IMG/VR virus record: IMGVR_UViG_2531839532_000012
Coordinates: 1-32,455 of that record
Reading direction: 5' to 3' (one strand)
DNA length: 32,455 nt
From: a virus
Taxonomy: Duplodnaviria > Heunggongvirae > Uroviricota > Caudoviricetes
Part shown: positions 3,075-31,546 of the stretch, piece by piece
Layout: every line of letters starts with the position of its first letter
Numbering within the stretch: position 1 is the first letter of the stretch
The notes under the pieces: model-generated
Told to the model about the DNA's origin: nothing
The model's input: only the letters and a program-made list of their open reading frames with translations
The model's database searches: none
Made by a program: the position numbers and the translations under genes

Positions 3075-4150
3075 ATGCTTCGCCACTTAACAGGACTCAG
3101 ATTTATAGCTGCATTAATGGTTTATTTATGCCATTTAAATACAGACTATTTTGGTGTTTTTGTAAAAGAAATGTTTTCCCAGGGATTTATTGGCGTTTCC
3201 TTTTTCTTTATTTTATCTGGCTTCATTCTTTCATATTCATATGAAGACAAGCTAAAAAATGAAGTAACAAGTAAAAGACAGTTTATTCTTTTAAGATTGG
3301 CAAGAATTGTTCCAATGCATCTATTATTAGCCATGCCATTTATTTTACTAACCATTCACTTAAAGAACTTTGATTTTTCAAAAACCTTAACAAATATTTT
3401 ATTAATGCAAAGTTGGATACCAAAGGAGGATTACTACTTCTCATTAAATGGTGTATCATGGTCTTTGTCTGATGAGCTGTTTTTTTATTTAATGTTTATT
3501 CCGTTGATTTATACATCAATTACAAAGAAAGTAATCACTGCAATATCAATTATAACTCTACTATTAACTATATATTTTTTAAAAATTATACAAACAGAAG
3601 AACTTAATCACTGGTTATATTATATATTCCCAGTAAGCCGCTTGGTAGAATTTATTTGCGGCATGATTATTTACGCTTGCTGGAAAAACAGCCGACAGCA
3701 GACAGTCGACAGTCGACAGTCGACAGTCGACAGTCGACAGTCGACAGTCGACAGTCGACAGTCGACAGCCTTTTGTTTTTAATTTCACTATTACCTCTGC
3801 TAATAGCTATATATTATAGCAACAACATAAATAATAGTCTACGTTATTCGTTATATTATTTACTCCCCATGGTAATATTCTTTACTTCATGCATCTATCT
3901 AAGAAATGGAGTCATTCATACTATCCTCAGTTCAAAAACCCTAGAGCTATTAGGGAAATCATCATTTATTTTTTATTTAATTCATCAACCCATTATATTA
4001 TTTTGCTTTAAAATCTTTGGACATAACCCCGGACCACTCTATTTAATAGCGCTCCTTGTTATAATAACCATAGTCTCAATCATACTTTATAAATTAGTTG
4101 AGGAGCCTTTAGAGCTGATGCTAAGAAAACGAATTTTAGCAGTAAAATAA
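3075..4150 (+). pseudogene. Acyltransferase-3 family membrane protein (O-acetyltransferase-like), split by frameshift at a heptamer repeat
   Basis: AAGAGG then ATG 3075. N-terminus MLRHLTGLRFIAALMVYLCHL fits acyltransferase_3 proteins and the product is multi-pass hydrophobic. Frame 1 stops at 3782; a second frame continues from the repeat to 4150. Low GC. Confidence 0.7.
3701..3763. repeat. Perfect tandem heptanucleotide repeat (GACAGTC) x9, with degenerate copies at 3694-3700 and 3764-3770
   Basis: Counted directly in the sequence. The unit contains a SalI site (GTCGAC). It sits inside the acyltransferase coding region. Confidence 0.95.
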
Positions 4151-22860: not shown

Positions 22861-23607
22861 TCACTTCGCAATTCCTGGCTGGACGACATTCGGACGCCAG
22901 CTCTCCCAGTTAAAATTCCCCCATCGCCCGCCGTTCATGGTCATGCGATCCATAATCCTCTCGCCGAGCAATGTTTTCATGGCCTCATAGTTCAGGTTTG
23001 TCAGCATCCCCACGCTGCGCATCGACGCTGTCCGGCGATCAACAATCTGGTGCAGCACCACCTGCTCGTTTTTTGTCTCGCGCTGAATGCCAATTTCATC
23101 AAGAACCAGCAGATCCACTTCGCACAGCTCCCGCAAAAATTTTTCGCCTGACTGCCCGTCGTCATAGCTGGCGTGCAGGGCGCTCATAACATCAGCCACG
23201 GTAACCACAATCACTGTCTGACCGTCTTTCAGCAGGCGATTCCCGATAGCTGCCGCTAAGTGATTCTTCCCGGTACCAGGTTTTCCGCTGAACGCAAAAT
23301 TTGTACACCCGGTCATCAGTTCATCGGTGATGGATTTCGCCTGGCTTAACGCGTATCGCTGGCCGTCGTTCTGCACCTGGTAATTCGCAAACGAGCATTT
23401 ACGGTGCAACGGCTGGATGCCAGAGCGATTCAGAATTTTTTCCACCCGCAACTGACGATTCAGGCGGTTGATCTCCTCGCAACGTTTCTGGCCTTCAGCA
23501 AGTTGCCACTCACGCCACTCCGCAACCGTTCTGAATGGGGCGGTTACATGTGGTGGGGTCAGTCTGCGGATACGCTCCAGAACGCCGCCTGTCGCAATAT
23601 TTTTCAT
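22861..23607 (-). CDS. DnaC/IstB-like helicase-loader ATPase (replication protein, 248 aa)
   Basis: Walker [16 protein letters not shown] and Walker B LLVLDEIG. Immediately downstream of the O-like gene. Confidence 0.8.
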
Positions 23608-23613
23608 GGTCTG

Positions 23614-24402
23614 TTACCCCCTGAAGCCTGGCGGGATCGCACTGTCCGGCAACGAGACGGTGTTAACCTGTCGGAGCAACGTCTCAGGCCGAACACCTTT
23701 CGGTGCGAACAAGCCCTGGTATTCATTGGCGATGCTGTGTCGAATCACCTGCTCAGGTGTAAAACCCTGCTGACGGAATTTTTCCAGTTCCCGTATCGCC
23801 CCGTTAGCGCCCTGCTCCGTTCGAATCGGTTTTCGCAATGCCTGTCTGAACCGGACCCACTCATGCCAGAGTGTTTCCGGCAACCAATCAGGCAGCTCAA
23901 TAGCCTCCGGCTCGAATTTTTTAGACGCTCGTTTTTGGCGAGGGGGATTTAGGGGGAGATCAGTATTTAGATCTTCCTCTTCCTCTTCCTCTGGTAACGC
24001 TTTTTGATCCGTTTGTGTAACGCTGGCAGCGTTACCTTTTCGTTTCAGTTCGCGTATTTTTGTAACTCGCTCGTTTGTAACCGCCCGTTTTTTAGAGCTT
24101 TTTCCGTTATGACGTTCAAAGTTAGGTAGAGAAAGCCCAACGTCATTTTCGACCAGCCATCCAACCTGAATTAACGCATCAGCAAACCCAGCCATAAAAG
24201 TGATGCGATCTATTGCACTTTTTGTAACGCCGCGAGCGTTACAATCTGCATTACCGTCTATCATTTGTTGATCCGCCCATGCCCAGAAGCGAATAACCTT
24301 CCCTAATGCGGCATCTGGATCAATATTCAGAATCTCAGCAAGCCTGAATATTTCCGGCTTATCCGGCGTAATAACCTCGAGCTTTATCCAGTTTGAAGCC
24401 AT
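23614..24402 (-). CDS. Replication initiator / replisome organiser (lambda O-like N-terminal domain, 262 aa)
   Basis: Position between the cro-side genes and the DnaC-like gene. Acidic linker EEEEEED. Palindromic repeats inside its 5' half. Confidence 0.65.
   Translation of the reverse strand: MASNWIKLEVITPDKPEIFRLAEILNIDPDAALGKVIRFWAWADQQMIDGNADCNARGVTKSAIDRITFMAGFADALIQVGWLVENDVGLSLPNFERHNGKSSKKRAVTNERVTKIRELKRKGNAASVTQTDQKALPEEEEEEDLNTDLPLNPPRQKRASKKFEPEAIELPDWLPETLWHEWVRFRQALRKPIRTEQGANGAIRELEKFRQQGFTPEQVIRHSIANEYQGLFAPKGVRPETLLRQVNTVSLPDSAIPPGFRG
24016..24036. repeat. Palindrome TGTAACGC-N5-GCGTTACC (candidate ori iteron 1)
   Basis: Read directly. Inside the O-like gene. Confidence 0.55.
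24223..24243. repeat. Palindrome TGTAACGC-N5-GCGTTACA (candidate ori iteron 2)
   Basis: Read directly. Inside the O-like gene. Confidence 0.55.
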
Positions 24403-24414
24403 TTGTTTTCACCT

Positions 24415-24435
24415 TGTAACGCTCGCAGCGTTACA
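24415..24435. repeat. Palindrome TGTAACGC-N5-GCGTTACA (candidate ori iteron 3)
   Basis: Read directly. In the intergenic region upstream of the O-like gene. Confidence 0.55.
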
Positions 24436-24479
24436 TTTAACTGATACCGAACAAAACAATCCGGCACGATTAATTTCAA

Positions 24480-24902
24480 TCAATGCACTACGACAGAATC
24501 GCCGGGCGACCCACCACCGCTGAAATGTGCTTTCCGGTAAACGGCCTGGACTGCATCATCATGCGCATCAATTGCCGTACTCAACGCTTCCTGCGCCGCC
24601 AGTAATGCACGGCGCTCCAGGGTATCGAAGATGCAGATTCGGTGACGCAGCTCGCGCGGAAGAATTGCCAGAACCGCAGGGATCAGTTTCTGAATTTTTT
24701 CCCTTTGCGCTTTCGTTTCACCTTTCAACCAACGGTGATAGATATTCTGCTGATTGTTCCAGTCCTTGCCTGGTACAAGGGGCAATTCGCCTCCCCCCTG
24801 GCGCAGATATTCTTCAGTAATTGCGTTAGCGACCCACGCCTGCCCTTTTTCGGCTGCCAGGGCTAACAACACTGATTCGATGTGCTCATGCCTGATTTTC
24901 AT
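24480..24902 (-). CDS. ydaT: YdaT-like protein (140 aa), CII-position regulator
   Basis: MKIRHEHIESVLLALAAEKGQAWVANAITEEYLRQGGGELPLVPG matches recalled Rac YdaT. ATG overlaps the cro-like stop. Confidence 0.65.
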   Translation of the reverse strand: MKIRHEHIESVLLALAAEKGQAWVANAITEEYLRQGGGELPLVPGKDWNNQQNIYHRWLKGETKAQREKIQKLIPAVLAILPRELRHRICIFDTLERRALLAAQEALSTAIDAHDDAVQAVYRKAHFSGGGSPGDSVVVH

Positions 24903-25141
24903 GAATCAACCGCTCCTATGCTGTTTTCGCTATGCTTACCGCCTGGGGGGAATACATCGTCAAGTCCACAATGAGCGCCAAGCCGATTAAGGGTAGAAAC
25001 AATTTTTCTGCACTCCTCTAGTCCAGGGGTACGAAAATTTGCTTCGTAATTTGCCAGTCGGCTTTGTATCCACCCTAACTGAACAGCAAGTTGTCTTTGA
25101 GACAGCCCAAGCTGTTTTCGATATGTTGAAATTTTGTTCAT
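24899..25141 (-). CDS. Cro-like HTH regulator (XRE family, 80 aa)
   Basis: HTH QLGLSQRQLAVQLGWIQSRLANYE. Divergent from the repressor gene across an operator-containing intergenic region. Confidence 0.7.
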   Translation of the reverse strand: MNKISTYRKQLGLSQRQLAVQLGWIQSRLANYEANFRTPGLEECRKIVSTLNRLGAHCGLDDVFPPGGKHSENSIGAVDS

Positions 25142-25165
25142 TGAAAACCTCCGATGACAATTTTA

Positions 25166-25180
25166 AACACATCTTGTGTT
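25166..25180. promoter_or_regulatory. Operator palindrome AACACATCTTGTGTT in the cro/cI intergenic region
   Basis: Dyad with CAC-N5-GTG half-sites, within the spacer of a candidate minus-strand promoter (TTGACC at 25185-25190). Confidence 0.5.
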
Positions 25181-25211
25181 ATATGGTCAAGCTGTTTTGT
25201 GTTTTATGTAA

Positions 25212-25226
25212 ATCACGATTCGTGAT
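25212..25226. promoter_or_regulatory. Operator palindrome ATCACGATTCGTGAT upstream of the repressor gene
   Basis: Perfect 7-bp arms, 12 bp upstream of the repressor ATG. Confidence 0.5.
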
Positions 25227-25237
25227 ACAAGGATGCA

Positions 25238-25657
25238 ATGGAAAAAGAAAACGAAAAAATTGCCGCTAGTAGGCTCAATGACAAAATTGCAATGCGTCTT
25301 AAAGAGCGCAGGCAGAAGCTTGGTTTATCTCAAGGAAAACTTGCTGAAATCTGCGGATGGACGCAATCGCGTATAGGTAACTATGAGGCGGGCAGCAGAA
25401 ATGTTGGAGTGCATGACGCTGTCGTATTGGGAAAGGCTCTTGGCATATCTCCTCCTGAGCTCCTCTTTGGAGAACAGGAATCTTCTGAATTGTGGTTAAA
25501 TGAATCCCAACGAAAACTTCTTGAGTTGTTTAACCAGCTACCGGGCTCAGAACAACAACGAATGATTGAGCTATTTGAAGTCCGGCTAAAAGAAATCGAT
25601 GAGTATGTAGAAAAATATTTGAGAGGCAGGCTTAAAGATAATCCCCCACCGGAGTAA
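25238..25657 (+). CDS. CI-type prophage repressor (DicA-like, XRE HTH, 139 aa)
   Basis: HTH LGLSQGKLAEICGWTQSRIGNYE. C-terminal ...LLELFNQLPGSEQQRMIELFE resembles DicA. AAGGA upstream of the ATG. Confidence 0.8.
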   Translation: MEKENEKIAASRLNDKIAMRLKERRQKLGLSQGKLAEICGWTQSRIGNYEAGSRNVGVHDAVVLGKALGISPPELLFGEQESSELWLNESQRKLLELFNQLPGSEQQRMIELFEVRLKEIDEYVEKYLRGRLKDNPPPE

Positions 25658-31440: not shown

Positions 31441-31546
31441 GTTGCATTATATACAAATTAGAACTTCATAGCTGATTATTAAAAATCAACCACACCCGCC
31501 AGTATTCTGTATATTTACTGGCGGTCATATCGTAAGAGGTATGGCA

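Follow-up and report, generated by a model that had tools for sequence, protein, structure and literature searches.

Clustered GTAACGC half-sites in and upstream of an initiator gene mark a candidate replication origin in a Rac-like prophage

An early-gene block with an unclassified initiator

Positions 23400–25400 of the analysed DNA (the window, a viral stretch of 32,455 nt) form the early-gene block of a Rac-like prophage. A cI-like repressor is encoded on the + strand (25238–25657), and the − strand carries the genes for a cro-like helix–turn–helix (HTH) protein (24899–25141), a YdaT/CII-like protein (24480–24902), a replication initiator of 262 amino acids (23614–24402) and a DnaC-like helicase loader, YdaV (22861–23607), with a gap of 77 bp between the ydaT-like gene and the initiator gene. 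YdaV matches PF01695 (IstB_IS21), NF009043 and NF005931 (DnaC) and phrog_50 (DnaC-like helicase loader), and is the presumed partner of the C-terminal domain of the initiator.

The initiator matches phrog_2509 (E = 4e-89) and belongs to no Pfam family. It consists of a putative origin-binding domain at the N terminus (residues ~10–97), with a predicted winged-helix-like fold, an acidic, disordered linker and a helical C-terminal domain that K-12 YdaU also has. The N-terminal domain yielded no Pfam match even at E ≤ 10. Phage_rep_O (PF04492, the lambda O family) did not match the initiator, hhalign of its N-terminal domain against residues 1–138 of lambda O returned a probability of 0.4%, and phrog_678 ('O-like') matched only the linker and C-terminal part (residues 102–236). 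DUF1376, which is found in the K-12-type protein with E = 2e-26, had no match in the window initiator, and the corresponding hhalign comparison was not significant. PGAP labels the family 'hypothetical protein', and we found no description of it or of its sites in the literature on ydaU/ydaV replication, Rac iterons or DnaT-like phage initiators. Of 5,426 complete E. coli genomes, 679 carry the full element, and 6,564 representatives of clusters at 50% identity have a match to the N-terminal domain. In a covariation test of C-terminal domain against loader type, single-linkage clustering lumped together all C-terminal sequences but that of locus L106.

Half-sites form three clusters in and upstream of the gene

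A pattern search for TGTAACGC-N5-GCGTTACA returned exactly three matches in the window, at 24016–24036, 24223–24243 and 24415–24435, the same three near-identical dyads that had been picked out in the earlier note; 0.12 matches are expected by chance, and three were reached in 1 of 100 shuffles. The gene context agrees with the placement given there, with two dyads in the 5′ half of the initiator gene and one in the gap upstream of it. All share the core GTAACGC-N5-GCGTTAC (7-5-7). The dyad at 24016–24036 (core 24017–24035) carries one mismatch, and that at 24223–24243 (gene offset +160) is perfect. The third, likewise perfect (TGTAACGC-TCGCA-GCGTTACA), lies between the ydaT-like and initiator genes, where its 7-5-7 core begins 32 nt before the initiator ATG and stops just 5′ of the AAGGTGA ribosome-binding site.

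Exact GTAACGC/GCGTTAC heptamers number 11 in the whole window, against 3.7 expected, and 7 of the 11 fall within the 441 bp of 23994–24434. One of these is the half-site previously placed near 23993 (GTAACGC, 23994–24000). The half-sites proposed at 24061–24082 are also there, but only as the degenerate copies GTAACTC (24062–24068) and GTAACCG (24077–24083), and another degenerate half-site, GCATTAC (24248–24254, gene offset +148), is absent from the earlier note. Although the palindromes themselves are real, the functional unit is better described as a 7-bp half-site that recurs in three clusters than as isolated dyads. Cluster 1 is the upstream cluster around 24415–24435. Cluster 2 (24223–24254), in the region coding for the N-terminal domain, combines a perfect palindrome with the degenerate GCATTAC. 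Cluster 3 (23994–24093), in the interdomain linker, contains a half-site, a palindrome, GTAACTC and the conserved TGTAACCGCCCGTTTTTT (24076–24093), which on the gene strand holds an A6 tract and a degenerate half-site.

We compared these clusters across homologous loci from phage records (68–70% nucleotide identity over the N-terminal half), 18 species-representative genomes, 80 close viral contigs and a 41-kb circular phage of the betaproteobacterium Pusillimonas, the N-terminal domain of which is 47% identical. The 18 genomes came from Escherichia/Shigella, Mixta, Erwinia, Yersinia, Serratia, Winslowiella, Samsonia, Rouxiella, Rahnella, Pantoea and Pectobacterium and included metagenome-assembled genomes (MAGs). 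Every homologous locus, that of Pusillimonas among them, has GTAACGC-N5-GCGTTAC at +148/+160 relative to the initiator ATG, and nearly all full-length genes have a linker palindrome at +357 to +412. An upstream palindrome at −32 to −44 was present in nine diverged lineages, often with one or two further direct half-sites 11–12 bp upstream of it. All three sites are retained in 80 of 80 close relatives, in which polymorphism falls mostly in the N5 spacer. Despite the 47% identity of its N-terminal domain, the Pusillimonas phage has an unchanged half-site; its linker cluster lacks a tight 7-5-7 palindrome and has half-sites at 355>, 367> and 390<.

The spacing between half-sites is also constrained. 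Of 72 pairs of neighbouring exact half-sites, 57 have a spacing of 12 bp and 10 one of 23–24 bp; the pairs are oriented '>>', '><' or '<<', and at 12 bp they are never divergent. From these spacings and orientations, each cluster can be read as a converging array of the form '> > < (<)'.

Selection acts on the DNA sequence

Across 43 distinct palindrome instances from 18–19 loci, the 7-bp arms are invariant and are combined with 34 different 5-nt spacers, at a mean pairwise nucleotide identity of 0.69 for the N-terminal region and with synonymous sites elsewhere saturated. Codons with their third base in an arm are essentially restricted to a single codon in 6 of 6 cases, compared with 4 of 92 elsewhere (Fisher 2e-7); the four exceptions (A52, K104, K105 and L108), of which K104/K105 are synonymously frozen as AAA and L108 as CTT, adjoin further half-sites. 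The linker palindrome is translated in two frames, giving xNAxxVT in one lineage and VTxxALQ in another, and '> > <' clusters are likewise seen upstream of the initiator gene, where the DNA is non-coding. GTAACGC is the most repeated heptamer of the region, with 117 copies in 17 × 630 nt, compared with 11 in 78.7 kb of flanking DNA, a density enrichment of roughly 80-fold. Because the arms are invariant around a free spacer, arm codons are frozen, two reading frames are used and non-coding copies exist, selection acts on the DNA itself; on this comparative evidence, the sites are functional DNA sites under DNA-level selection and not a by-product of coding.

Where half-sites lie in frame (24000–24036 and 24223–24254 in the window; 3356–3432 in locus L014), they encode (G/S/C)-N-A tripeptides. 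The linker holds one to three direct half-sites, varying by locus, and this variation gives rise to GNA/SNA/CNA peptide repeats. Lineages with more half-sites carry repeats such as SNAKGNAISNAASVT, so that protein repeats appear to arise from expansion of the DNA sites.

The linker cluster is followed by a purine-rich tract

The linker cluster spans +334 to +409 of the gene, codes for residues 112–137 and borders a segment predicted to be disordered (residues 124–161); clusters 1 and 2 lie outside the linker. On the gene strand, the order of elements is conserved: an A6 tract with a degenerate half-site is followed by one to three direct half-sites and the palindrome, then, after about 15 nt, by a final GCGTTAC, which leads into a polypurine run of GAR repeats (83% purine) and then a short, AT-rich stretch with a mean GC of 0.35, before the C-runs. 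In the window, the purine-rich (gene strand), AT-rich tract GAGGAAGAGGAAGAGGAAGATCTAAATACTGATC (23958–23992) lies directly 3′ of the last half-site and is a candidate DNA-unwinding element. Among 17 loci, the interval +40 to +60 from the palindrome centre has a mean GC of 0.35 (minimum 0.20) and a purine fraction of 0.83.

An AT-rich region next to the repeats had been suggested as something to look for. A conserved purine-rich tract does follow the last half-site, but its AT-richness is moderate in the window (GC of about 0.35, the window median being 0.475). The Pusillimonas phage retains the polypurine run as five AGAGAAG units although the peptide there reads REEKRREEK. The segment encoded by the purine tract is predicted to be disordered. 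No DnaA box or IHF consensus was found between 23000 and 25300. GATC sites at 23958, 23970 and 24006 flank the tract (within 23941–24009), and a direct repeat of C-runs, TCCCCCTAAATCCCCCT (gene strand), comes after it. Similar C6-N5-C6 motifs, often beside GATC, are seen in many homologous loci, and their conservation may be at the level of the DNA or of the protein (PPLNPP).

Likeness to oriλ and to K-12 Rac

The arrangement resembles that of oriλ, in which O dimers bind to four inverted repeats of 19 bp inside the O gene, with opening of an adjacent 40-bp A+T-rich region (PMC5043065). In both, dyad-symmetric repeats of about 19–21 bp lie within the gene of the initiator, at the junction of its N- and C-terminal domains (+334 to +409 here; iterons annotated at +348 to +432 of O in the lambda record), and a purine-rich AT tract follows the repeats on the coding strand. 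The two systems also share the gene order of cro-like, CII-like, initiator and loader genes on an early rightward-type transcript, and a modular initiator with an exchangeable N-terminal specificity domain. They differ in that the N-terminal domain described here has no detectable homology to that of lambda O (hhalign probability below 1%), the loader is DnaC-like rather than lambda P, and the AT tract is weaker; moreover, whereas lambda has four adjacent 19-bp iterons, the 7-bp half-sites here, spaced by 12 bp, are spread over three clusters that lie about 200 bp from one another and of which one precedes the gene. The idea of a lambda-style origin is favoured by selection on the DNA, by linkage to the N-terminal domain and by an order and position like those of oriλ, but it does not extend to detectable homology with the O N-terminal domain.

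Evidence for the linkage to the N-terminal domain comes from K-12 Rac, which has been reported to carry an active origin, oriJ (PMC3945230). The K-12 Rac YdaU–YdaV/oriJ system occupies the same genomic position and shares the C-terminal half of the initiator (86% nucleotide identity over 376 bp) and the YdaV loader. It differs in its DUF1376 N-terminal domain, which is accompanied by no GTAACGC sites, and in its linker repeats. The K-12-type ydaU (locus L006) has repeats of its own, five copies of TTGAACATCTG and an inverted pair TGTTCAAACA/TGTTTGAACA, at 2214–2285, 2433–2444 and 2518–2529 of that locus, with most copies in the linker-coding part. Given the same C-terminal half and loader, another N-terminal domain and no such sites in K-12 YdaU, the sites travel only with the N-terminal domain described here, and domain and sites together may be regarded as a specificity module, as in the lambdoid O proteins. 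The L006 repeats may be the cognate sites of the DUF1376-type initiator and therefore an oriJ candidate of K-12 Rac. We found no oriJ coordinates in the literature, and oriJ is not annotated in NC_000913.

Weighing other binders and other functions

The earlier note had also considered that the array might be a set of operators for YdaT or the cro-like protein, and more generally the sites might be bound by a protein other than the initiator, be it a YdaT/CII-like protein, a cro- or cI-like repressor or a host transcription factor. In favour of this, ydaT lies directly upstream, and YdaT binds inverted repeats, as a tetramer (PMC11879457). Its footprinted box, however, is ATGATT-N6-AATCAA, overlapping the ydaT start codon (PMC11879457), and that of CP-933P is TTGATT-N6-AATCAA (PMC9986795); the GTAACGC-N5-GCGTTAC palindromes do not fit the operator (A/T)TGATT-N6-AATCAA. 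The window has its own copy at 24892–24909, over the start codon of the ydaT-like gene (CTGATTTTCATGAATCAA, the reverse complement of TTGATTCATGAAAATCAG), which matches the mapped K-12 Rac box ATGATTCATGAAAATCAA (PMC11879457) and is the only good match near the module; one other match, with one mismatch, lies at 31472–31489. A YdaT/CII-like gene is, furthermore, missing from 6 of 18 loci that retain the palindromes. With a box of a different sequence and a gene absent from a third of these loci, YdaT was rejected as the binder. We likewise rejected cI/cro operators: the cI/cro intergenic region (25160–25215) carries a different motif, a repeated TTGTGTT(A/T)TATG (25174 and 25197) with small dyads ACACATCTTGTGT and TCACGATTCGTGA, and these repeats, unrelated to GTAACGC, presumably serve as the immunity operators. 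Binding by a host factor would require that factor to be conserved from Enterobacterales to Burkholderiales, with its motif still confined to the initiator gene. The only gene common to the 18 diverged loci within about 3 kb is the initiator gene, and we regard binding by another protein as very unlikely. Nor do the sites behave as RNA. Each palindrome folds to a hairpin of 8–10 bp (z-scores of −1.9 to −3.4), as expected if the hairpins governed the stability or translation of the early mRNA, and on the + strand 24017–24035 followed by CTTTTCGTTT scores as terminator-like (24017–24045), antisense to the initiator gene. This T-rich tail is nevertheless confined to one site and to the antisense strand, the other two hairpins having no T-run; the 43 distinct instances show invariant arms and no compensatory change, the few variants break the pairing, and hairpins would not account for unpaired half-sites that keep fixed spacings of 12 and 23 bp. 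A structured RNA or intrinsic terminator, for which there was no Rfam match and which the conservation pattern does not resemble, was accordingly discarded as extremely improbable. Chance, or a by-product of coding for the conserved GNAxSVT peptide, deserves practically no credence. Two sites do encode the conserved GNAxxVT, found in 109 of 147 top-ranked family representatives, but synonymous freezing is confined to the arms, the linker site is read in two frames, the upstream copies are non-coding and the heptamer is enriched roughly 80-fold by density.

It is harder to set aside a purely regulatory role, in which the origin lies elsewhere and the initiator, bound to clusters that loop together, represses its own transcription or translation or acts as a roadblock to them. 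The upstream cluster is always 20–44 nt before the ATG, beside the ribosome-binding site, and the cluster spacing of about 200 bp would suit looping. In iteron plasmids, moreover, inverted repeats that bind initiator dimers act as autorepression operators. Those of pPS10 and pSC101 (RepA), F (RepE) and R6K (pi) resemble the present system in having a winged-helix-type initiator and a short repeated sequence, with direct repeats and an inverted repeat near the start of the initiator gene; they differ in that the sites here are overprinted on coding sequence and no promoter was found overlapping the inverted repeat. In the Bacillus phage SPP1, the replisome-organiser-type protein G38P binds repeats in its own gene (oriL) through its N-terminal domain, a comparable arrangement with different hosts and a different loader type. 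The comparison with iteron-plasmid initiators, which are covered in reviews (PMC5043065, PMC4980987), is not one of homology. Against operators alone, no sigma-70-like promoter was found near the upstream palindrome at a consensus threshold, and half of the lineages have no upstream cluster yet retain both intragenic clusters. The richest cluster lies in the linker and, as in oriλ, has a conserved purine/AT tract after it, and scans of the 32-kb window for the palindrome and for the GTAACGC heptamer revealed no other repeat array. We therefore consider an exclusively regulatory function unlikely.

A candidate origin within the initiator gene

Given selection at the DNA level, sites exclusive to this N-terminal domain and an oriλ-like layout, we think it likely that the three clusters are initiator-binding sites that form the replication origin of the prophage. 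Initiator binding and the start of replication at these sites are what we infer from sequence comparison. The palindromes, which are the cores of the three GTAACGC clusters, would be the cognate sites of the winged-helix-like N-terminal domain, and the clusters would jointly constitute a phage origin contained in the initiator gene, within its 5′ half. Expressed from a pR-type early transcript, the initiator would bind the 7-5-7 palindromes as a dimer, as well as the flanking half-sites, and build a nucleoprotein complex resembling an O-some. This complex would destabilise the purine-rich, AT-rich tract at 23958–23992, 3′ of the linker cluster, and the C-terminal domain would recruit the DnaC-like loader YdaV carrying host DnaB. 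The upstream cluster, beside the ribosome-binding site, may also be autoregulatory, in which case binding there would additionally damp initiator expression.

More tentatively, the locus could be a dispersed hybrid of origin and operator that brings together an undescribed winged-helix domain, three converging half-site arrays, autorepression next to the ribosome-binding site coupled to unwinding at the linker, two-frame overprinting and xNA repeats. With three converging arrays about 200 bp apart, the initiator would then wrap or loop the 5′ half of its own gene. We hold this fuller picture to be possible but doubtful.

If the candidate origin is correct, it would provide both an origin and a recognition sequence for an initiator family that is still annotated as hypothetical, with an N-terminal domain that reaches across thousands of protein clusters in Enterobacterales and beyond. 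The replicon proposed is concrete, with a 7-bp half-site in three clusters and a candidate tract for unwinding, and would allow Rac-like and Uetakevirus-like phages to be typed by replication specificity (ori). It would also be a clean example of putative DNA-binding sites that constrain, and even generate, protein sequence. An iteron-type origin within its own initiator gene is a known arrangement; what would be new is the non-homologous initiator and the unusual dispersed layout of half-sites. The proposal would thus extend the lambda paradigm to a non-homologous initiator and overturn no concept.

Circular and truncated relatives

The Pusillimonas phage (locus L108) is the record NC_015459.1, a 'plasmid' of Pusillimonas sp. 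T7-7 of 41,205 bp with replicon type rep_cluster_1580, which contains a complete temperate phage genome (integrase, capsid, tail and lysis genes) assembled as a circle. Its initiator homologue and a DnaC-like ATPase are its only annotated initiator and helicase-loader genes. Only two plasmid records carry the N-terminal domain, this one and E. coli CP088505.1, which has no known plasmid replicon type and was inspected over a stretch of 5 kb.

Truncated initiator copies were seen in Shigella flexneri and E. coli (loci L007 and L008, 3001–3633, 210 amino acids, with an altered EEEE tract) and in a MAG (locus L024, 3001–3201, 66 amino acids), and many Shigella database entries of the initiator are marked 'partial'. 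The truncated copies are probably those of decaying prophages, with the palindromes still retained.
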